Position numbers and translations under genes: made by a program | The notes under the pieces: model-generated | Databases searched by the model: none | What the model saw: only the letters and a program-made list of their open reading frames with translations | Told to the model about the DNA's origin: nothing | NCBI GenBank assembly: GCA_903837285.1 | Contig: CAILUD010000009.1 | Span: forward strand, 3,284-67,283 | Direction: 5' to 3' | DNA from: an uncultured Bacteroidota bacterium | Lineage (GTDB): Bacteria; Bacteroidota; Bacteroidia; Bacteroidales; GWA2-32-17 | DNA length: 64,000 bases | Shown here: positions 1 through 42,975 of the stretch, piece by piece | How positions within the stretch are numbered: position 1 is the stretch's first letter | Layout of the letters: each line of letters starts with the position of its first letter

Positions 1-3000
1 TTGAAGCCAATGCTAAAAATTGATTTACTTTATTAACTGGCACTTGCTCTTTAAACGCGCCTATTTGTACCTTAAAATTAATTGCACTTTTATCAGCAGG
101 TAAATTATTATTTTGTTTTACTTCTACAGTCTGTTCTGGATACTTAACTTCAACCTGCTCTGTATTGGCACCTGGATTTTGCATTTCAATTTTAGTTGCC
201 TCAACTACACTTATTCTTTTACCATTATAATATGCAGACACAAAAGCATCAGGTATTCCAAGTTGAATTATTCTGTTTTTTTCATTATCAGCTTTTTTGA
301 AATCGGAATATTTTCCGGTAGTGTAACGAATAAATCCATAAGCCTGTTCTTCATATATTGGTGAAAGATTTTTTAAATCTTCTGAAGAAACTGGATTTTT
401 ATATACACCTATTTGTACAGTATAAAATAAACCAGAAGTTGTTGATACGTTAGTGGAATTCACTACCTGTTTAACATTATTCTGAGCAGTTGTATTATTT
501 ACCTGATTATTGTTATTATTCTGATTATTTATATTTGCATTCTGATTAACTGCAGCAACTGTTCTATTTTTAACTTTTTCAACCTCAGCTTGAGCCAACA
601 AATTATAATTTTCATTATCTCCACCATCTTTAAGCATTCTGCGGGCATCAAATAACGAAATACGTTTTCCATCTTTATATGCTACAACAAAGGCATCGGT
701 ATAGCCAATTGGCTTAATTTGATTACGAACAATATTTGCAGCATCCTCAGAATAAAATAAGCCTACATAATACCTAACATACTGACTTCCTTCAAGTGTT
801 TCGCCAGTTATTGGATTTAAACCTTTAAAAGCCTCATTTTTAACAGGTGCTTTGAATGCTCCAATTTGAACTTTAAATACTATTCCTTCGGGTAAAGGAA
901 CATTCATAGGAATTGGACTGGTATTGTTATAAGCATTAACTGGAAGTATTGAGAAGCCAAATCCTGTTTTATTTAACGCCTCGGTAATTGACTTATTTGA
1001 AGTGTTATTATCCGGTGGATTAACAAAATTTGTGTTTATATTATTTGTTACATTATTATTTTCAACTACCAGATTAGTTTTTGTAGCAGTATCAACAGGT
1101 GAAACATTATTTATTACTACGTTGTTATTTTGATTATTGTTTTCAATAACTGTATTTTTCACATTGTTAGAAGTATCTACAGGTGTTGTATTATTTTCTA
1201 CAATTAAATTTGTTTTTGTGGTTGTATCAACTGGAGAAATATTATTTATAACTACATTGTTATTTTGATTATTGTTTTCAATAACTGTATTTTTTACTTT
1301 GTTAGCTGTATCGACTGGTGTTGTATTATTTTCTACAATTAAATTTGTTTTTGTGGTTGTATCAACTGGTGTTGTATTGTTTTCGACTACTAAATTTGTT
1401 TTTGTGGTTGTATCTACTGGTGTTGTATTATTTTCAACAATTAAATTTGTTTTGGAGGTTGTATCGACTGGAGTTGTATTATTTTCAACAATTACATTTG
1501 TTTTTGTACTTGTATCAACCGGAGAAATATTATTTACTACTACGTTGTTATTTTGATTATTATTTTCAACAACAGTATTTTTTACCTTGTTAGCAGTATC
1601 TACAGGTGTTGTATTATTTTCTACAATTAAATTTGTTTTTGTGGTTGTATCAACTGGAGAAATATTATTTAAAACTACATTGTTATTTTGATTATTGTTT
1701 TCAATAACTGTATTTTTTACTTTGTTAGCTGTATCGACTGGTGTTGTATTGTTTTCGACTACTAAATTTGTTTTTGTGGTTGTATCGATTTGAGTTTCAA
1801 TATGTGTAATGTCAGCATTAGTTTTAACTATTAAATTATTGTTTTGATTATTATTTTTAGCAGGATGTTTTAATGCATATTCTTTTATTTCATCATCTAA
1901 AGGTTTTAAATTTAGGTAAATTCCATAGGCTCTTTCCTGATCTTCAATTGCTTCTTCTTCAAGCTTTATTGCCTCTAAAGCTATAACATATGCTTTACGA
2001 GCATCTTCTTTCATGAAAGCTTTTTCGGTAAGGGCTTTACCTTTTGAAAATTTTGCATTTGCATCTTTTTCTAATTGTTTACCTTGTCTGGCCTCGTTTG
2101 TATTATCGTTTAAACGGGTTTTCTTGAAATTCTCTTTATATAAATAAAAACGTGCATCATTTATACTTTCGTTAATTTCAACTGAAGTAAACTGACTAGC
2201 AAACATATTCTTTTCAACCTTTGGAATTTGCTTCTCGGCCTTCTTCTTATCTTTTGCGTTTGCAGGTAACTCAACTATTTTTTGCAGACTATCTAATTCA
2301 GCTTTAAATTTATTTGCATCAGCTATTAATTGATTTGAAATAACTCTTTTCTTTTCAACCTCATCTAGCCGAATTAATTCTTCTTCGGTTAAACTAAGTT
2401 TAGAAACAATTCTACTTGTTTTAATTCTTACAATTTCATTAACATCAACAGGCTGATTTAATACATCGAGTCTATCAACCTTTGTTAAGCCATTTGTTGA
2501 AACAAAGAACACGGGATTTACATCTGTTAGCACATCTACAGCATATTCCTGACTAGATAGTGCTTTATTCTCAAAATCTGTTGCACGCTTTAATTCCTCG
2601 ACTTTTAAATTTTTATCTGTAATACTATTTGCATTCTGTTTAATTTTAATGGCTTCGGCAAAATAAAAATCGGCTTCACTTGTATATTGTTTTGCAATTG
2701 ACTTATTATTACCTACATCAGGGGAAGATGCTTGAAACTGTTTTATTTGATTTTGATAAACCCTAAATTTTAAACTATCAGCATTACCATAATACTTGTA
2801 TGCATTAAGCATTTGATCAAGTGCTTTTTGTTCTTTTGCATCAATCCCTTTTAATAGTTGCTGTTTTTCTTTGGTAGAAAAAGTTGCTGCTGCCTGATTT
2901 CTTTTAACTTCAATTTCTGCCAATACCTTTTTTGACTCGGCTAATAAAACATCAGCTTTATGTGTTTCGGTATTATAAGTTTTTAATTGATTCTCTTCGT

Positions 3001-6000
3001 CGGGATTTAAAGTAATCGCAACAGTTCTGGGAACTAAATTAGTGTCGGGAGAAACTGTATTAAAGTTTTTGTTTGCATTTAGATTTGAAACATTGTTAGC
3101 ATTATTAACATTGCTAACATTATTTACAGTTTGATTTTCGGCAGTTAAATTTGTTTGAGACTTTTTAAATAAATCGATAGAATACTTTTGTTTTTGAATT
3201 GCAATTTGCTCAATGTTATCAGCTTTATTATATTCCAATAATACTTCCTCTGGCTTACCTAACAATTCTGCATCTTTGCGGACATTTGCAGCTTTTTCAA
3301 AATAGATTTCTGCTTCTTTATCAAGCATATTTGCTAATCTTATATCTGGATTTGTAAGATCTATTTTTTTATTAGCATCAATTACATCTTTATAAATAGA
3401 TGCTGCATCCTGATTAGATTCCTTTGAAACAGTTGCATATTTTTTAATATACTCATCTTGTTTCTCAAGTTTTAAAATAAGTTCTTTATCTATTTGTTTT
3501 TGAGTTTTTGCATCAGCAGTTTCGCGTTTTTTATTTAAATCGTTGATTTCTGCAGTTATTTCAGAATAATTTTTTTGAACTCCTTTAAGATATTCGCGAT
3601 CATTTTCAACTAAACTCATTATTTGCTTTTGCTCATTACTTAAATTTAATTGACTCTTCATTTTATATTGAGTCGCATTAAGAACTAGCTGTTCATTTGT
3701 TACAGAATTAGTATCTACCTCAGAAACTGCTTCACCACGTAATTTATCTGCATTTAATTTGCTTTGATTTCTGATTTGAGTGTTTTTTTCTACATCTTTA
3801 TTCAATTCAGCAATTTGTTTTTCGATAGATGTTTTCGTAGCCTGATCTGTTGTATTACTCAAACTGTATTTCAACATATCAACTTTGGTTCTTTGGTCCC
3901 TAACTAAATTCTCATAATACTGAGAATTTAAAACTTCCTTTTGATAAGAAACAAGCTTTGAGTCTTTATTTGACGAATTCTCATTATTAAACGGGAAAAC
4001 AGAATTACTATTATAAATATTTGTGTTATTATTTGTTGCAAGAGTTTTATCATTTGCTTTAGCTTGTTTTAACAAATCATCACTTTGCTTACGTTTTAAC
4101 TCTTTTAAATCGTTAAGTTGAGTAATTTCATTATAGGCAGCAGCATGCTTTTTAGGATCGGTTATACTCGCCATTGCCTTCTCTTTTGAAGAAATAACAG
4201 ATTGTAATGAGTCGGCTATTCTACCACTTTTCTCGGCTTGAGTATAAAGATTTTCTGGTTTTGAAGTATTACCAGACTCAATATTATTTGTAACTTTATT
4301 ATTATTTTGAATATTGTTATTTGCAGTAATATTATTATTCTGTAAAACCGTATTTGCATTTTTAACATCTACACTAAGTTCCTTTTCAAATATATCTTTA
4401 TGTAGCTGATCTTTGTTAATACTTTTTGTTAACACCGCTATATCTTGTGTTGATCTATTATCAGAAGTTACATTCGTTTGTAAATTCTTTAGAAACTTTA
4501 TTTCATCCTGTAAATTATCACTGGCTAATTTTGACTTCTCGTAGTTTTCTTCTAATAATGAATCTTTTTCCTGATAGCTTACAAGTTGTTTGTTTTTATT
4601 TTCTAATTGTTTTGACAGTTCAGTTTTCTTTGTATTATCATTTTCGTTATCTATCTGCTGTTTTAAAGTACTTACCTCATCTTCTATACTTGAAATATCA
4701 TTTTTATTAGCATTAAATTCTTTTTCATTTTGCAAAAACTCAACTTGCTTTGTATTTGCAAGGTTAGTTCTGTTTTCAATTTCATTTTCGATTGTTGTAT
4801 ACTTATTCTGGCTGCTACTTAATCGTTCTTTATTTTTATTTACAATATCAACCAGACTTTCATTATTAGAATTATCTGCATTACTTATAGCCTCTTTAAT
4901 GTTTTTAGTTTTAGATGCATCTTTCTCAATATCACTAGCTACCTGATCTAAATTCTTTGCTAAGTTATATGCTGTTACTGCATTATTTTCAAGATTTTCT
5001 GCATCAGTTATTAAATTATAAATCTCTTGTTTTTTCTTTTCTGCTTGGTTTTGATCAGATATTTTATTTAATTCTGTTGTTTTATCGCTTGCAATTTTTC
5101 TTTTGTTATTTGCCTCATTATTTTTTTCGATAGCTGATAAATATGCTAAATCGCTTTGCTTTCTTAAATTATTAGCCTGCTCACTTACTACCTTTTCATC
5201 ATTAGCAACTTCGGCACTTAATTGTTGAGTTGTTACATTTGGAGTATACGAAATAGGCTTAAATTTATATCCAGACTGATTTTGAAGACTATTGTTATTA
5301 GTATTATTTTGAGCTAACACCTGTTTATTTGCAAGTTCATTATGAAAATTTTCAGCTTTCTTAATATCAGCTAAAGTAGACACCTCGAGTTTTGATGTAT
5401 TTATAATTTCGTCAATATTATTAAATTGTCTTTCTATCGGCTTTTTATCAACTACAATTTTATAAACTGAAATGTTGTCGCCCGTAGTTTCACGATTTGA
5501 TGCAAAATAAGCATAAAGTTCATCTTTATCTGTAATAAAAAGATAATCATCGTAAGGAGTATTTGTAGGAAAATCGAGATTTACTGGTTTTGTCCATACT
5601 TTTGCAGTGCTATCATAAACAGATTTAAAAATATCGTATCCTCCCATACTATTATGGCCCTTGGATGAAAAATACAATGTTTTACCATCTGCCTGCAAAA
5701 AAGCATAATCTTCATCATAAGGAGTATTAACTACTGGACCAATATTTTCGGGTTTGCCCCATTTACCGAGGGAATCTTTCTTTATTTTATAAATATCCCG
5801 GCCGTTTACATTTTTATCTCCATAGCTCCCATAAAACACTTCCGTTGCATTATTTGGAAAGAATATAACATTATTTACAGTTTCTAATTTTTTATCAATT
5901 TTAGATTTAAATTCAGGTGGTTTTACAATTAATTTACCTCCAAAATCTTTTAATTCGTATGAGTAATAAAAATTATCACTTTTAATTTTCTTATTGTCTA

Positions 6001-6762: not shown

Positions 6763-9648
6763 ATGAAAACCTGGTTAATGTTTTATGTCTTTTTAGGAAT
6801 ACTCTTTATTAATGGAGTTAGTCAAGAGGTTGAATGGAAAAAACCTATAGTTGAAAAATACACTTTAGAAAATGGCTTAACAATTATTTTAAACGAAGAC
6901 CATTCGAGGCCAATGGTATACGGTATCATAGTTACCAAAGCCGGCTCAAAAAATGATCCAGCTGACGCAACAGGAATGGCTCATTATATGGAGCATATGT
7001 TATTTAAAGGCACAGATGTTTTAGGAACAACTGACTGGAGTGCAGAAAAACCATTTATTGATAAAATATTTTCTCTTTATGAAGAATTAGGAAAAACAAC
7101 TGATTCCGAAAAGAGAAAAGAAATTCAACTAAATATAAATCAGGCATCTCTTGAAGCAAACAAATACGCTATCCCCAACGAGATGGATAAAGTTATTAAA
7201 AGCATTGGAGGAATTGATTTAAATGCAAATACTAGTCCAGATAGAACCGTTTATCATAATGCATTTCCATCAAACCAAATAAATAAATGGCTAGAAATAT
7301 ACAGTCAACGTTTTATAAATCCTGTATTTAGAGGGTTTCAATCTGAATTGGAAGTAGTTTATGAAGAGAAAAATCTTTATTCGGACATGTTTCAGTTTAA
7401 GCTTTTTGAGGAGTTCAGTAAAGCTTCATTTAAAAATCATCCATACGGTCAACAAGCACTTATAGGAACAATTGATCATTTAAAAAATCCTTCTTTAAAT
7501 AAAATGTTTAAATTTTTTACAACTTATTATGTTCCAAACAATATGGCACTTGTTTTATCTGGAGATTTCGACACAAAAGAAACTCTTGAGTTGATTAAAG
7601 AAAAATTTGGAAGATGGAAAAAAACTGAATTGCCCGAGAAAAAAGAATGGAAAGAAGTTCCTTTTAATGGACGTGAATTAGTTGAAATGAAATTAACACC
7701 AATTAAAATTGGGATGCTTGGATTTAGAACAGTTCCTGCCGGCGATAAAGAAGAAATTGCCATTCAAATTTGTAACGGAATACTTTCAAATGGCAATCAA
7801 ACTGGATTATTAGATAAATTAACAATTGACAATAAATTACTAGCAGCTCAAATTTTTCCAATGCAATACAATGACTATGGCGAAAATGTAATTTTGATAG
7901 TACCAAAAATATTAGGTCAGAAACTTGAAGATGCTGAAGAACTTGTAATGCAAAAAATTGAAGATTTACGTAACGGAAATTTCGATGAATGGATGGTTGA
8001 TGCTATTAAAGCTGAAATGTACAAAGATTTTATGTTCGAAATGGAAAATGTAGAAAATCGTTCAATGTATTTTGCCGAATTATTTGGCCAAAACCAAGAT
8101 TTTGAATCTGCTTTTTTAATGCCCGAAAAAATTATGTCGATTACAAAACAAGATGTAATAAACACAGCAAAAAAATATTTTGGCAAAGATTATCTTGCTT
8201 TCTATTCTAAAATGGGATTTCCAAAGAAAGAAAAAATTGATAAACCAGGATACAAACCTGTGATTTCAAATACAGATGCAAAATCGGAATTTACAAAACA
8301 CTTAGAAACATTGCCATCAAAACCAATTGAAGAAAGATTTGTTGATTTTAGAACAGATGTTCAACAAAACAGAGTAAAAAAAGGAATAGGTTTTTATCAA
8401 ACCAAAAACCCATACAATGATATTTTCACACTTACCATAAAATATGGAATGGGCGAAACCTACCACCCACTTTTAACAAATGCAACACAACTTGCAAATC
8501 TATCAGGAACAACTGAACTAAAAGTAAACGAACTAAAAAACGAATTCAGTAAAATTGGTTGCACATATAGTATAAGTAGCGACAGGGATTACACAATTGT
8601 TGAATTAGAAGGAAAAGAAAGTCAGATTAAACCCGCACTAATATTATTAGGAAAACTAATACATAACCCTGTTTGCGAACCAGAAAAATTGGACATATTG
8701 TTAGAGGGCGAAAAATCTACCCGTAAAATGGAAGACAAAGAACCTGATAACATTGCAACTGCACTTTTTAGCTGGATAAAATATGGTAACAAATCAAACT
8801 TTATTGATAGGCCAACAGTTAAAGAATTAAAAGGAATTAGCACCGATTCATTATTGTCAGTATTTAAATTAGCTACAAATTTCGAAGCCGATGTGCATTT
8901 TGTTGGAAATTTACCATTTGATGAGATTATCTCTTATTTAAAAAATGATTATCGTTTTGCCGACAGACCATCAAACTCATTAGCCCCATCTAATTTAAGT
9001 GTAACAAAATATAATGAAAACACAATTTTTCTTGTTGACAAACCAAAAGCTCTTCAAAGTAAAATTTATTTTCTTATAAACGAAAAACCATTTTATAACG
9101 ACGATGAACCATATATCGATGCTTTTAATTTATATTTTGGTGGCGATTTTTCGGGGTTAGTTCTTCAGGAAGTGAGAGAATACCGTTCGTTGGCATACTC
9201 TGCTGGTGCTCGTTACTCGGTTCCTAAACAATCTGGAAAAGAAAGTCTTTTCTATGGTTTTATTGGAACACAAAGCGACAAAACACTTGAAGCTGTTAGT
9301 TTATTCGACTCACTTGTTAGAAAAATGCCTTTAAAACCAGAAAGAATAAATATGATAAAAGAATATTTAGCTCAGTCGTCTGTTGCCGAACATCCCGACT
9401 TTAGAAATGTAAGTCAATCAATTGCAAGCTGGAAATTATTAGGTTATAAAGAAGATCCTGCCAGGGTTAAAATTCCCGTTTATTACGAATTAACTTTTGA
9501 TGATATTAAAAAATTCTCCGACGATAATTTAAAAACTAAACCAATGGTTATTGGTATTGTTGGCGACGCCAAAAGAATAGACCAGAAAGAACTTACTAAA
9601 TACGGTAAAGTTGTAGTAATTAAACAAAAATCTCTTTTTAGGAATTAA
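6763..9648 (+). CDS. M16 (pitrilysin/insulinase) family zinc peptidase, double-module, secreted
   Basis: Inverted zinc motif HxxEH in GMAHYMEHMLFKGT and an N-terminal signal peptide. The ORF track starts at TTG 6757; ATG 6763 (MKTWLMFYVFLG) is preferred. Confidence 0.85.
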   Translation: MKTWLMFYVFLGILFINGVSQEVEWKKPIVEKYTLENGLTIILNEDHSRPMVYGIIVTKAGSKNDPADATGMAHYMEHMLFKGTDVLGTTDWSAEKPFIDKIFSLYEELGKTTDSEKRKEIQLNINQASLEANKYAIPNEMDKVIKSIGGIDLNANTSPDRTVYHNAFPSNQINKWLEIYSQRFINPVFRGFQSELEVVYEEKNLYSDMFQFKLFEEFSKASFKNHPYGQQALIGTIDHLKNPSLNKMFKFFTTYYVPNNMALVLSGDFDTKETLELIKEKFGRWKKTELPEKKEWKEVPFNGRELVEMKLTPIKIGMLGFRTVPAGDKEEIAIQICNGILSNGNQTGLLDKLTIDNKLLAAQIFPMQYNDYGENVILIVPKILGQKLEDAEELVMQKIEDLRNGNFDEWMVDAIKAEMYKDFMFEMENVENRSMYFAELFGQNQDFESAFLMPEKIMSITKQDVINTAKKYFGKDYLAFYSKMGFPKKEKIDKPGYKPVISNTDAKSEFTKHLETLPSKPIEERFVDFRTDVQQNRVKKGIGFYQTKNPYNDIFTLTIKYGMGETYHPLLTNATQLANLSGTTELKVNELKNEFSKIGCTYSISSDRDYTIVELEGKESQIKPALILLGKLIHNPVCEPEKLDILLEGEKSTRKMEDKEPDNIATALFSWIKYGNKSNFIDRPTVKELKGISTDSLLSVFKLATNFEADVHFVGNLPFDEIISYLKNDYRFADRPSNSLAPSNLSVTKYNENTIFLVDKPKALQSKIYFLINEKPFYNDDEPYIDAFNLYFGGDFSGLVLQEVREYRSLAYSAGARYSVPKQSGKESLFYGFIGTQSDKTLEAVSLFDSLVRKMPLKPERINMIKEYLAQSSVAEHPDFRNVSQSIASWKLLGYKEDPARVKIPVYYELTFDDIKKFSDDNLKTKPMVIGIVGDAKRIDQKELTKYGKVVVIKQKSLFRN

Positions 9649-16367: not shown

Positions 16368-16484
16368 CTTTATATATTAATTTAGTTAGTTAATTTGATT
16401 TTTATTCAACCAGAGAATAAATTGAACTACCTAGAAATAAGCACACTACAGACAAACAATCTTAAAACATAGATTCTTCACTTC

Positions 16485-16498
16485 TCCGCCGCGGCGGA
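16485..16498. repeat. Perfect 14-nt GC palindrome TCCGCCGCGGCGGA in an AT-rich divergent intergenic region
   Basis: Read directly. The flanks ttc / gaa extend the pairing with a 2-nt bulge. Confidence 0.9.
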
Positions 16499-16586
16499 CA
16501 GAATGACAAAATGTAATGAATTTTAAAATTAATGATTTTGTTAATTAGTTTATACGAAAATTCTTTATTCTACATTTTAGTTTTAA

Positions 16587-16594
16587 TACTTTTG
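16587..16594 (+). promoter_or_regulatory. -7 box TACTTTTG
   Basis: Exact match 21 nt upstream of the dnaG TTG start. Confidence 0.4.
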
Positions 16595-16614
16595 AAGTAT
16601 AAAAAAAATAAGCA

Positions 16615-18579
16615 TTGATTGACGAAATTACCATACAACGAATTATTGATACATCGCGCATAGACGAGGTAGTTTCGGAATTTGTAAACCTAAAAAAACG
16701 TGGTTCAAATTATATTGGATTATGCCCATTTCATAACGAAAAATCTCCTTCATTTTCTGTCTCGCCGGTAAAAGGAATTTACAAATGCTTTGGTTGTGGA
16801 AAAGCTGGAAATGCAGTAAATTTTTTGATGGATCATGATCACATGCTTTATCCTGATGCATTAAGATGGCTGGCAAAAAAATACAATATTGAAATTCACG
16901 AAAAAGAAATTTCTGTTGAGGAAATTGCAAAACGTGACGAACGCGAAAGCTTATTTGTAGCCACAACATTTGCTCATGAATTTTTCACAAACACAATACA
17001 AAAAACTGAGGAAGGTAAAGCTGTTGGGCTAGCTTATTTTCATGAAAGAAATTTTCGTGATGATATTATTAAAAAATTCGAACTTGGATATTCGCCGGAT
17101 AAAGCCACAACATTCTACAATCATGCAATAAAAAGCGGCTATAAACCAGAATTTCTTTTAAAAGCAGGGTTAATAAACAAAGGAAATTTTGATTCATTTA
17201 GCGGAAGAGTAATTTTTCCAATTCATAATTTAAGTGGAAGAGTTGTTGGATTTACAGGTAGAATTTTAAATAAAGAAAAAAGTCCTGCAAAATATTATAA
17301 CAGTCCAGAATCTGAGATTTTTCACAAAGGGAAAATTCTATTTGGGCTGTACCTGGCAAAAAAATCAATTGCCGAAAAAGATAGATGCTATTTAGTTGAA
17401 GGCAACGCAGATGTTGTATCAATGCACCAATCGGGTATTGAAAATTGCGTAGCCTCCTCAGGAACAGCTCTTTCTGTAGATCAAATTGCACTTATTAAGC
17501 GATTCACAAAAAACATAACATTACTTTACGATAGCGACCCGGCTGGAATAAAAGCTGCAATAAGAGGTATTGATTTGCTATTAGAAGAAGGAATGCATAT
17601 TAAAGTTGTATTACTTCCCGAAGGTGAAGACCCCGATTCTTTTGCACAATCACATAGCCAGGCCGAGCTTTTTGAATTTTTAAATAAAGAAGAAAAAGAT
17701 TTTTTCGCATTTAAAACTACCGTTTTATTAAAAGACGCCGGGAAAGATCCTGTAAAAAGAAGTGAAGTATTAAATGATATAGTTAAAAGTCTTGCACTTA
17801 TACCAGATAATATTTTACGATCGCTATACATTAAAGATTGTAGCAGGCTTTTAAAAATTGAAGAACAACTTTTACACAGTGAGGTTGCAAAAAGAATTAT
17901 TGGAAAAAGAACCGAATACTCTTCAAACGTCAGACCATCAGATATAATTGGCAATAGCCCTGAGACTCCAAAAATTTCTTCAATTATCGACGATTTTTAT
18001 GCAGAGGAACAAGAATTTGAAATACTTAGATTAATTTTCTTATACGGAAACAGAGTTATTTATAAAGAGAAACAAGAAGATGATGAAATTGAGCAAACCG
18101 TAGTTAAATACGTTATTCAGGAACTAGTTAACGATGAATTAGAATTAAAAAACCTTGTAAATCATCGGATTTTCGAAATATTTTGTGAACAACTTAAAAG
18201 CTATGGATATATTGAACCCAAAGAATTAATATATCACACCGATGATGTTATTCAGGAACTTGCAGCCGACAGACTTAACACTCCATATTACAGAGCACAA
18301 ATTAAAGGTCAAAGCGACTTACTGTCAAAATATTACAAAAGAATTGGCATTCTTGTAAAAACCGAAGATGCTAAATTAAAAGATAGTTTACCAAGAGTAA
18401 TAATAAGATATAAAATAAAAATACTTGAACTTGTAAACAAAGACATCATCGACAAGCTATCAATGGCACAGGAAGTAAATGCCAGTCAGGAAATTATTGA
18501 TGATTTATTATTACAACACAACGAAAACAGAAAGATATTACAAGAGATGTATTCCATTTACGGGCAAGTTGTTAGGTAA
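16615..18579 (+). CDS. dnaG: DNA primase
   Basis: Zinc finger CPFHNEKSPSFSVSPVKGIYKCFGCG and a Toprim region (YLVEGNADV, LLYDSDPAG). The start codon is TTG. Confidence 0.95.
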   Translation: MIDEITIQRIIDTSRIDEVVSEFVNLKKRGSNYIGLCPFHNEKSPSFSVSPVKGIYKCFGCGKAGNAVNFLMDHDHMLYPDALRWLAKKYNIEIHEKEISVEEIAKRDERESLFVATTFAHEFFTNTIQKTEEGKAVGLAYFHERNFRDDIIKKFELGYSPDKATTFYNHAIKSGYKPEFLLKAGLINKGNFDSFSGRVIFPIHNLSGRVVGFTGRILNKEKSPAKYYNSPESEIFHKGKILFGLYLAKKSIAEKDRCYLVEGNADVVSMHQSGIENCVASSGTALSVDQIALIKRFTKNITLLYDSDPAGIKAAIRGIDLLLEEGMHIKVVLLPEGEDPDSFAQSHSQAELFEFLNKEEKDFFAFKTTVLLKDAGKDPVKRSEVLNDIVKSLALIPDNILRSLYIKDCSRLLKIEEQLLHSEVAKRIIGKRTEYSSNVRPSDIIGNSPETPKISSIIDDFYAEEQEFEILRLIFLYGNRVIYKEKQEDDEIEQTVVKYVIQELVNDELELKNLVNHRIFEIFCEQLKSYGYIEPKELIYHTDDVIQELAADRLNTPYYRAQIKGQSDLLSKYYKRIGILVKTEDAKLKDSLPRVIIRYKIKILELVNKDIIDKLSMAQEVNASQEIIDDLLLQHNENRKILQEMYSIYGQVVR

Positions 18580-40785: not shown

Positions 40786-41871
40786 CTAAATATAGCTCTC
40801 CCCTTTTTGTATTTTAATATCAGTTACAATTTGCCTGATATGTTGCTCATCATCTTTTTTACATATTAAAAGAGTATCATTAGTATCAACAACGATATAG
40901 CCTGACAAACCATTTAAAACAACCAATTTATTATCTGGTGCATTAATTATACAATTATCAGTATTATAAGTAACAGCATTTTCACCTTTAATAACGTTTT
41001 GATGTTCATCTTTAGGAAGATTTTCATATAAAGAACCCCAAGTTCCAAGATCAGACCATCCGAAATCTGCAGATATAACATAAACATTATTAGCTTTTTC
41101 CATCACGCCATAGTCAATAGAAATATTTTTGCATTCAGAATAAATTGACGAAACAGCATAATCTTCTTTATAAGTAGAAAAATGATGGAATGCTTCTTTA
41201 AATAATATATCAACTTCCTGAAGATGATCTTCAAAAGCCTTCATTATCGATTTTAAACTCCATATAAATATTCCGCTATTCCAGAAAAACTCACCACTTT
41301 CGCAAAAAACTTTAGCCATTTGTAAATTTGGTTTTTCGGTAAAGGTTTTAACCTTTAACAAGCCACCCTCTATTTTCTCGTCATTATTTATTTGAATATA
41401 GCCATAACCAGTTTCTGGTCTTAATGGTTTTATTCCTATAGTAAGTAATGCATTGTTTTTATCTGTAAATTCTAATGCTTTAAGTATTGTTCTTTTAAAT
41501 TCTTGGGTATTTAAAATTAAGTGATCAGAAGGAGCTACAACAATATTTGCATTTGGGTTTCTCTTTAAAATTGTATAATTAGCATATGCAATACAAGGAG
41601 CAGTATTTTTTCGCTGAGGCTCAAGTAAAATTTGTTCAGAAGTTAGTTGAGGAAGCTGTTCTAATACTAGATCTTTATAATCCTTATTTGTTACAATATA
41701 AATATTCTCAACGGGACAAATCTCATTAAAACGATCAAAAGTAGCTTGTAAAAATGTTCTACCAGTATTTAAAATATCTAGAAATTGCTTTGGTTTAGAA
41801 GTACGGCTTAATGGCCAGAATCGGCTACCGATTCCCCCAGCCATAATTACACAATAGTTGTTAATATTCAT
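40786..41871 (-). CDS. Mannose-1-phosphate guanylyltransferase-like nucleotidyltransferase
   Basis: VIMAGGIGSRFWPLSR (GGxGxRxxPL) and 361 aa in total. Confidence 0.8.
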   Translation of the reverse strand: MNINNYCVIMAGGIGSRFWPLSRTSKPKQFLDILNTGRTFLQATFDRFNEICPVENIYIVTNKDYKDLVLEQLPQLTSEQILLEPQRKNTAPCIAYANYTILKRNPNANIVVAPSDHLILNTQEFKRTILKALEFTDKNNALLTIGIKPLRPETGYGYIQINNDEKIEGGLLKVKTFTEKPNLQMAKVFCESGEFFWNSGIFIWSLKSIMKAFEDHLQEVDILFKEAFHHFSTYKEDYAVSSIYSECKNISIDYGVMEKANNVYVISADFGWSDLGTWGSLYENLPKDEHQNVIKGENAVTYNTDNCIINAPDNKLVVLNGLSGYIVVDTNDTLLICKKDDEQHIRQIVTDIKIQKGESYI

Positions 41872-41906
41872 ATAGTTGCGTGTATTGTAATGTTTTTTTT
41901 GGTAGG

Positions 41907-41914
41907 CAAAAGTA
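41907..41914 (-). promoter_or_regulatory. -7 box TACTTTTG (minus strand)
   Basis: The plus strand reads CAAAAGTA, 35 nt upstream of ATG 41871. Confidence 0.4.
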
Positions 41915-42022
41915 TAAAAATATAACTATAAAATCGCCCATTGTTAATTAAAAGTGGGGCAAAATAATATTAATTTAAATACTAAAAATAATTTATAATG
42001 CTAATCAAAAACTTAGCTTTAT

Positions 42023-42325
42023 AATATTCTGCTAACTGATGGAGATAACTCCAAAAGGGGCGATAGATTCTATTTAAAACGCTCTTGCACGATAACAATA
42101 ATGAAACATCTACAATGCTTTAATACCCTATTTTAATTATTTGTTTTACAATAATATATCATCTACGATGATATGTCTGTAATTTCTTCTATATGTTGGA
42201 GATAACTCTAATAAGGGCGAAAAACTCCATTACCTCTTATTTCTCACAGAGTCTCCTGAAAGGGACTCTTTGCAAACATGAAATATTATGCTAAGCTGTT
42301 TGATATAAATCCAACAGGGGCGATA
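42023..42325 (+). repeat. Three dispersed direct copies of a ~29-43-nt element in a 474-nt non-coding region
   Basis: Cores at 42037-42065, 42194-42222 and 42297-42325, with 24/29 identity each versus copy 1. Consensus TGnTGGAGATAAcTCcAAnAGGGGCGAtA. Copies 1 and 3 also share the left flank AATATTnTGCTAA. Confidence 0.8.
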
Positions 42326-42345
42326 AAAAAGTAGAGGCGATTTAT

Positions 42346-42975
42346 TTATTCAATAATACTTTCAACTTCTGCCTCTTTATTCACTAAATACATTTTATTA
42401 CTGGATAAGTCTTTACATAAATATCTTGTTCTACGCTTTTCAATAATTTTTACTGTCATTCCGATAGTTAAGTTTAAACAAGAATTAATCGGAAAAGCTT
42501 CTAATCTTGTAGGAATTAGTATGTTTAAACTAAAATTTATTCTGTCAACAATTTTACTTCTTGATCTAGAAGAATAATCATTTTTAACAACATAATAATA
42601 ATGTACTACTTCAGCAATATCTTTAGGAAATAATTCATTTTTAATTGCAGAAACTAAATAACTCGAAAAAGTATTCTTCCACTCAATGCCATGAGGTTTT
42701 ATTCTTCTACCATAGTCATCAAATGCTTTCAGATGCGCAAGTTCGTGTAATAAAGTAATTAAGAATGAATATTTATCCAGATTTCCGTTAACAGTAATTC
42801 TTTGCTTTTTGCCATGAAAAGATTCCATGTAATCGCCATACTTGGTTTGCCTTGACTTTGTGACCTTTAGATGAAATACTAATCCTCTGGTTTCACTTTC
42901 AACAAAAATTGCGGCACTATCACCAATATATTTGGCTAAATTTTTTTGAAAACTTATATCCTCTTCAGCAGCCAT
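42346..42975 (-). CDS. SprT-like zinc-metalloprotease-domain protein
   Basis: LLHELAHL (HExxH) followed by HGIEW. Confidence 0.7.
   Translation of the reverse strand: MAAEEDISFQKNLAKYIGDSAAIFVESETRGLVFHLKVTKSRQTKYGDYMESFHGKKQRITVNGNLDKYSFLITLLHELAHLKAFDDYGRRIKPHGIEWKNTFSSYLVSAIKNELFPKDIAEVVHYYYVVKNDYSSRSRSKIVDRINFSLNILIPTRLEAFPINSCLNLTIGMTVKIIEKRRTRYLCKDLSSNKMYLVNKEAEVESIIE

Follow-up and report, generated by a model that had tools for sequence, protein, structure and literature searches.

Decayed REP elements probably account for a long, lineage-specific intergenic spacer in an uncultured member of the Bacteroidia

The window, by which we mean the whole 64-kb stretch of DNA analyzed, has its longest stretch outside open reading frames (ORFs) of at least 110 aa between a SprT-like gene and a ManC-like gene (Table 1), as the first-pass annotation had stated; this spacer measures 474 nt, and the second-ranking such stretch, at 16368 to 16827, measures 460 nt; a simple hairpin scan found nothing in the latter. 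The window is AT-rich, with a G+C content of about 31%, and its host is an uncultured member of the Bacteroidia: gldL, gldM, and gldN (gliding/T9SS) adjoin the locus, and the nearest named homologs belong to Bacteroidia or Bacteroidales MAGs. Because the SprT-like protein has the same length as its relatives, the SprT-like gene is undamaged. The -7 box of the ManC promoter, TACTTTTG at 41907 to 41914 on the minus strand, is present as described before and is conserved across all relatives examined. A scan for tRNA and tmRNA genes found nothing.

Table 1. Features of the spacer, of its counterparts in relatives, and of the RAYT-like loci flanked by the same repeat
Feature	Sequence	Coordinates	Strand	Remarks
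ManC-like mannose-1-phosphate guanylyltransferase gene	window	40786-41871	-	downstream of spacer
SprT-like/ManC spacer	window	41872-42345		474 nt
Ancestral spacer with ManC promoter	window	41872-42019	-	promoter-proximal ~60 nt aligns to relatives; weak similarity beyond
Lineage-specific segment, ~320 nt, with all three REP copies and both hairpins	window	42020-42345 (approximate)		absent from five relatives' spacers
REP copy 1: CTGATGGAG-ATAA-CTCCAAAAG hairpin, 7/9 pairs, GGGGCGATA tail	window	42036-42065	+	nhmmer 30.9 bits (family HMM)
Hairpin ATATCATC-TAC-GATGATAT	window	42156-42174		read from sequence
REP copy 2: ATGTTGGAG-ATAA-CTCTAATAA hairpin, two G-T pairs, GGGCGAAA tail	window	42193-42222	+	nhmmer 35.0 bits
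Second palindromic repeat family, AAGAGTCCCTTTCAGGAGACTCTGTGA (minus strand)	window	42243-42270	-	between copies 2 and 3; second hairpin of the first-pass annotation
REP copy 3: CTGTTTGAT-ATAA-ATCCAACAG hairpin, 8/9 pairs, GGGGCGATA tail	window	42296-42325	+	nhmmer 29.9 bits
SprT-like gene	window	42346-42975	-	upstream of spacer; intact, 209 aa as in relatives; Pfam PF10263 precomputed for homologs
SprT-like/ManC spacer	L003			146 nt; ManC 88% identity
SprT-like/ManC spacer	L004, L005, L006			258 nt; ManC 80% identity
SprT-like/ManC spacer	L008			96 nt; ManC 75% identity
SprT-like/ManC spacer	L027			173 nt; SprT-like 79% identity
SprT-like/ManC spacer	L028, L029			202 nt; SprT-like 77% identity
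RAYT-like gene	L031	1844-2365		repeat copies 1770-1797(-), 2387-2415(+)
RAYT-like gene	L035	2621-3145		repeat copies 2560-2594(-), 3153-3178(+)
RAYT-like gene	L037 = L038 (one locus, two samples)	2587-3111		repeat copies 2516-2543(-), 3116-3149(+)
Two RAYT-like paralogs	L039 (Mucilaginibacter sp. X4EP1)			repeat copies with loop variant ACAA

The spacer does contain, as first proposed, three direct copies of a motif (30 nt as delimited here), spaced 157 and 103 nt apart; identity to copy 1 is 80% for copy 2 and 83% for copy 3. When up to three mismatches are allowed, a 26-nt consensus matches exactly three sites in the 64-kb window and none in 100 dinucleotide-preserving shuffles, and neither this consensus nor nhmmer with the family HMM found a further copy in the window. 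The first-pass annotation missed the palindromic nature of every copy, CTGnTGGAG-ATAA-CTCCAnCAG with GGGGCGA(T/A)A behind it; the 9-bp stem is imperfect, with 7 to 8 of its 9 positions paired and one or two mismatches in each copy. The loop-closing pair of copy 3 has changed from G-C to T-A. Copies 1 and 3 share the left flank AATATTnTGCTAA, as had been seen before, and copies 1 and 2 have about 48 nt in common; such shared flanks suggest that part of the three-copy count may stem from duplication in place, with a unit larger than the hairpin, and not from separate insertions. A hammerhead-like reading of CUGAUGGAG...GAAA in copy 1 was discarded, CUGAUGA being absent from the family consensus. 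The inverted partial copy ATCGCCC reported at 41931 is present, but it lies in the promoter-proximal segment common to relatives, where L003 reads GGTCGG, and so probably does not belong to the repeat cluster.

Both hairpins that had been reported between the copies, at 42156 to 42174 and 42248 to 42269, are present, and the second belongs to a palindromic repeat family of its own. The stretch at 42243 to 42270 is 27/27 identical to L026 986-1012 and 96% identical to L022 6801-6828, L022 7031-7058, and L026 932-958. These two loci come from one other MAG, LJ_bin-1023, in which the second-family repeat adjoins the main motif, the two being oppositely oriented relative to each other. The window has a single occurrence, with 0 expected by chance. 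The hairpin at 42156 to 42174 has nothing similar in any fetched locus and no family match. The spacer is a BIME-like mosaic of at least two palindromic repeat families. In one of two loci from the same strain that are identical over the region (L001 and L002), positions 1-55 of L002 are unrelated G+C-rich sequence joined to the window sequence near 42150, by the hairpin at 42156 to 42174; this junction is probably an assembly chimera at a repeat.

Orthologous loci were fetched via ManC and SprT-like homologs, and the SprT-like/ManC gene pair is kept in every one compared. Only the promoter-proximal part, including the -7 box, aligns between the window and its relatives, with 85% identity to L003 and L027 over 41894 to 41954. 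The family HMM (nhmmer) found no motif in the orthologous spacers of L003, L004/5, L008, L027, and L028/29. Since the relatives' spacers are 96 to 258 nt long and lack the repeats, about 320 nt of the window spacer, roughly 42020 to 42345, is lineage-specific and absent from all these orthologous spacers. Closer strains, in which ManC is 95% identical (P0263 to P0265, P0269 to P0274, and P0001), have about 185 to 210 nt of spacer ahead of ManC. The spacer of L004 has a long inverted repeat of its own at 2690-2765, TTGTTTACCCCGTTGGATA...TATCCAACGGGGTAAACAA (L005 is the same), the core of which resembles the window motif ATCCAACAGGGGCGATA. Palindromic repeats may insert recurrently in the SprT-like/ManC spacer.

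A degenerate pattern of 22 nt that all three copies satisfy was scanned over 596 Gb comprising one genome per species, for which its information content leads one to expect only a handful of chance matches. It matched 18 stretches, all 18 of them in Bacteroidota. Eleven lie in one Cytophagales MAG (JAAFJE01), several with 2 to 4 copies; this MAG holds 17 exact-pattern matches, and the family HMM finds more copies. The remaining matches are in Arcicella gelida, a Mucilaginibacter MAG, Bacteroidetes bacterium GWA2_32_17, and the MAGs LJ_bin-1023 and SZAS-12, and a weaker match in Flavobacterium cellulosilyticum is probably due to chance. The representative genome of the nearest relative, GCA_016218155.1, is not among the matches to the strict 22-nt pattern. 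A scan of JGI metagenomes added six loci, while an IMG/VR scan and consensus BLAST searches against plasmid and phage collections returned no matches; as far as those collections go, the element is chromosomal. The earlier suggestion of a genome-wide repeat family was thus right in kind, with many copies of a REP-type element in other Bacteroidota, although within the 64-kb window the element forms this cluster only.

The sequence common to the copies of the Cytophagales MAG is the perfect palindrome CTTGTTGGAGATAACTCCAACAAGGGCGAAA, and the intact form of the family is CTTGTTGGAG-ATAA-CTCCAACAAG-GGCGAAA, that is, a hairpin of 9 to 10 bp, (C)TTGTTGGAG-ATAA-CTCCAACAA(G), with an unpaired conserved foot, GGCGA(A/T)A. 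L019 (LJ_bin-1023) carries CTGTTGGAGATAACTCCAACAGGGGCGATAAAA, which equals the window copies minus their mismatches; copy 1 is identical to the L019 copy at 29 of 31 positions and copy 3 at 30 of 33, and copy 2 matches copies in the Cytophagales MAG, LJ_bin-1023, and others at 29 of 31. Canonical REP foot nucleotides are GTAG/GTGG; the foot here, GGCGA 3' of the hairpin, reads TCGCC 5' on the other strand and is not GTAG. Inverted doublets with variable interiors, in which the motif forms one arm as in REPINs, occur at L014 3855-3995, L016 ~5345-5470, L031 ~4330-4390, and L036 2057-2179. A MITE with target-site duplication was considered and set aside, no duplication being found at the doublets inspected (L014, L031, and L036), as was a resemblance to an integron attC site (CTCCAAC...GTTGGAG), which does not fit single 30-nt hairpins.

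In an alignment of 30 distinct family copies, 89% of stem cells are paired and 5 of the 10 pairs show compensatory changes, with two-sided changes such as CTTG/CAAG, CTCG/CGAG, and TTCG/CGAA. The covariation score of the stem exceeds that of all 500 shuffles, and the register is better than every slid control. This palindromic conservation contradicts the suggestion that the copies are what remains of a gene for a repeated short peptide (EITPKGAID and the like) and, equally, the reading as a degenerate CRISPR-like array, for which the repeat length of about 30 nt would be suitable. Each copy does lie in a small ATG-started ORF (12, 33, and 18 aa) in the same frame relative to the motif, but the flanks, starts, and stops are unconserved in other genomes, and it is the pairing, with its compensatory substitutions, that is retained. 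As for an array, the spacing is irregular, at 103 and 157 nt here and 68 to 1136 nt elsewhere, and does not form repeat-spacer units; in other genomes the sequences separating the copies are repetitive too, and no cas gene was found among the flanking ORFs inspected. Of all the readings weighed here, a peptide gene or a CRISPR relic is the one to which we give the least credence.

Another proposal was a small-RNA locus or a functional 3' UTR, with the repeated hairpin as an RNA module, either in one or several sibling small RNAs or in a structured UTR of the SprT-like gene. The region folds better than shuffles (z = -4.0 for the plus strand and -2.8 for the minus strand), although any palindrome cluster is expected to fold well. 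On the plus strand, the stem of copy 2 is kept by two G-T pairs; across the family, however, stem mismatches comprise 12 G-T cells and 12 A-C cells, so that neither strand is preferred, as expected of a DNA palindrome and not of a strand-specific RNA, and from genome to genome the copies lie in either orientation relative to neighboring genes. A hairpin and a T-run that resemble a terminator come after the motif in LJ_bin-1023. The window region has no terminator-like site. Its sigma-70-type promoter-like sites number 8, close to the shuffle expectation of 4.8 +/- 2.0, and the sole TAnnTTTG match in 41872 to 42345 is the -7 box of ManC. In the Rfam scan that the first-pass annotation had envisaged, no family reached its gathering score, whether in the window or among 15 related loci, and with E values of up to 10 allowed for the region, the best subthreshold match had an E value of 0.11, with snoRNA and GcvB at chance level. 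REPs in 3' UTRs do stabilize upstream mRNA in E. coli (PMC6006769). The segment in question is missing from all relatives examined. A functional RNA at this spacer is, on balance, improbable.

Other repeats and genes are found beside the family copies in several genomes. In the Cytophagales MAG, at L016 5750-5990 and L014 3040-3250, a unit of about 62 nt (GTTGCAGGAGCAAAACATCGTGTGATGCAACCTTCCTGCAA) is repeated head to tail beside the REP clusters; this is another repeat family. A segment of about 620 nt with an ORF for a membrane protein of 115 to 117 aa is shared at 93% identity by L016 4731-5347 and L025 198-820 and has inverted REP copies at its ends. At L019 3300-3668, a Bro-N-like ORF (...IQSIPSPKAEPFKL) runs into a REP copy and ends there, as if truncated by the repeat, and about 60 nt of promoter-like sequence recur on either side of this ORF. 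Other palindromes, of the GTCATGCTGAACTTGATTCAGCATC and GTCATGCCGAACTTGTTTCGGCATC types, lie near REP copies in two unrelated genomes (L024 ~7100-7135; L036 ~2185-2215 and 2310-2345).

The motif flanks five RAYT-like genes at four independent loci (Table 1), within 60 nt on each side and as inverted copies. The encoded proteins, of 173 to 175 aa, have the HUH motif PNH[IL]H and the tyrosine motif YIH[AH]NP, and those of L031 and L035 are 56% identical. They match the full profile of NCBIfam NF047646 (REP-associated tyrosine transposase) with E values of 2e-22 and 8e-19, the scores of 79.4 and 68 bits lying just below its cutoff of 80, and match Pfam Y1_Tnp weakly, at 22.4 and 17.2 bits, just below the cutoff of 23. 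The clade numbers 427 homologs at an E value of at most 1e-20; every named one is from Bacteroidota, and several have been named RayT by JGI or NCBI. No RAYT gene was found in the 64-kb window by tblastn. The L037/L038 locus (RAYT P0145) has 30% G+C and comes from three ENA sample series that also yielded contigs of the window organism or of its closest relative, an overlap that is suggestive only of a link to the window organism. Direct repeats of about 47 nt, AAAGGTTTTTGTTATTTTAAAATGATGAATCAATTAAAAAGAATTTT, at 2488-2562 and 3186-3232, stand on either side of the REP-RAYT-REP unit of L035, which looks as if it had been inserted as a whole with, or into, a duplicated target. The Cytophagales MAG has a second RAYT-like gene (L014 2058-2747; 229 aa, NHFH...YIHQNP) with a hairpin, AACGTCGGGGAGGTTTTAAACCTCCCCGACGTT, at 1960-2010 and 2750-2800; a copy of this hairpin is inserted in frame within the gene, in agreement with published subclass 2.4. 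We rejected this gene as the source of the cognate enzyme because its hairpin is different and it has nothing but the catalytic motifs in common with the L031/L035 clade.

The distribution of the motif weighs against the proposal that the repeats are regulator binding sites, the palindromes then serving as operators through which a dimeric transcription factor would control the SprT-like gene or ManC. Each copy does have a common operator layout, 9+9 palindromic around a center of 4 nt, and the copies do lie upstream of the ManC promoter. Some 120 nt, however, separate the -7 box from the copy nearest to it, stem mismatches occur in the copies, and relatives have no copies upstream of ManC even though the promoter itself is conserved. 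In other genomes, moreover, the motif occurs in unrelated contexts and orientations: beside unrelated genes, as inverted doublets, and around transposase genes. We regard operators as very unlikely, more so than a functional RNA.

Our combined results are best explained, with a probability that we put at roughly 85%, by a decayed, BIME-like cluster of REP elements from a Bacteroidota REP/RAYT family, which is lineage-specific and most likely consists of inert relics. By analogy with REP/RAYT and IS200/IS605 systems, for which the handling of hairpins by the transposase is reviewed as background in PMC6006769, the RAYT would recognize the folded hairpin together with its foot on single-stranded DNA and would disperse the element, as a rule in the form of inverted doublets (REPINs). 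The segment of about 320 nt was added in this lineage alone, between the stop codon of the SprT-like gene and the ManC promoter, and the window copies have since gained their stem mismatches. It is these mismatches, the exclusively direct orientation, and the absence of a RAYT within 64 kb that lead us to read the copies as inactive. The cluster probably has no dedicated function at this spacer; at most, it might incidentally affect the SprT-like transcript at its 3' end, since the hairpin of copy 3 ends 28 nt downstream from the stop codon. For the biology of the locus, a cluster of decayed REPs is of little import: the longest noncoding stretch of the window would be explained as mobile-DNA debris, and the spacer can be removed from the list of candidate RNA genes and regulatory regions. 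The hairpin-plus-foot motif and the RAYT clade could, in turn, provide a quick masking marker for scans for structured RNAs in Bacteroidota intergenic regions.

REPs are usually described as species-specific. In this family the core TTGTTGGAG-AYAA-CTCCAACAA and GGCGA are nearly unchanged in Cytophagales, Mucilaginibacter (Sphingobacteriales), and several unclassified Bacteroidota MAGs, while the RAYTs flanked by this core are only 52 to 56% identical. We speculate, tentatively and with more doubt than conviction, that either the RAYT-hairpin interface is under unusually strong constraint or the REP-RAYT unit has spread horizontally and repeatedly within the Bacteroidota; the 47-nt direct repeat of L035 hints that a whole REP-RAYT-REP cassette can move. 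A core that is nearly identical across distant Bacteroidota could be of interest for studies of REP/RAYT coevolution.

Enterobacterial BIMEs typically alternate REP orientation, whereas the main-family copies in the window are direct repeats, and their sequences are unrelated to those of BIMEs; the resemblance is that a single spacer downstream of a gene contains several REP-type palindromes belonging to more than one kind. The CGTC-tagged REPs reported in Bacteroidetes, for which no associated transposase was found (Di Nocera et al. 2013, PMC3733652), are similar in having a stem of 8 to 9 bp that opens with A/T pairs, a loop of 4 to 5 nt, and a four-base tag by the foot, but the tag here is CGCC and not CGTC (or TGTC/CCTC), and the present family flanks RAYT-like genes. 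Searching the literature for the hairpin sequence as text found no relevant paper.

The closest system is REP/REPIN-RAYT of subclass 2.6, whose tnpA_REP genes occur mostly in Bacteroidetes and have 'atypical secondary structures' at their flanks (Quentin et al. 2018, PMC6006769). Table S1 of that study gives GCCG-GTTGTTGGTG-TTAT-CACCAACAAC beside the subclass 2.6 tnpA_REP AEI49282.1 of Runella slithyformis, a hairpin that has the same loop as our family and, apart from a compensated change of 2 nt in the stem, matches the family consensus; the same GGTG/CACC stem variant is present in L012. The foot, CGCC/GCCG here as against GTAG in canonical REPs, fits the 'atypical' class and the GCCG foot of Runella subclass 2.6. 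The Y and W motifs of our proteins, YIH[AH]NP and FWE/LWK, differ slightly from the published subclass 2.6 signature of YIH[QN]NP and WQ. From these motif signatures and the matching published hairpin, rather than from a tree, we infer that the RAYT clade corresponds to subclass 2.6. Like known members of such systems, the family combines a short palindrome with a compensated stem (9 to 10 bp, 4-nt loop) and a conserved, though non-GTAG, unpaired foot, has many extragenic copies in some genomes (JAAFJE01), forms inverted doublets, and lies on both sides of a single small gene for an HUH/Y1 transposase that has NH[IL]H and YIHxNP motifs. The window copies depart from this pattern as decayed head-to-tail singlets with neither an inverted doublet nor a cognate RAYT in their 64 kb, where the family is represented by just this cluster. 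The family itself is a REP family with its RAYT, already on record in kind through the Runella slithyformis hairpin.
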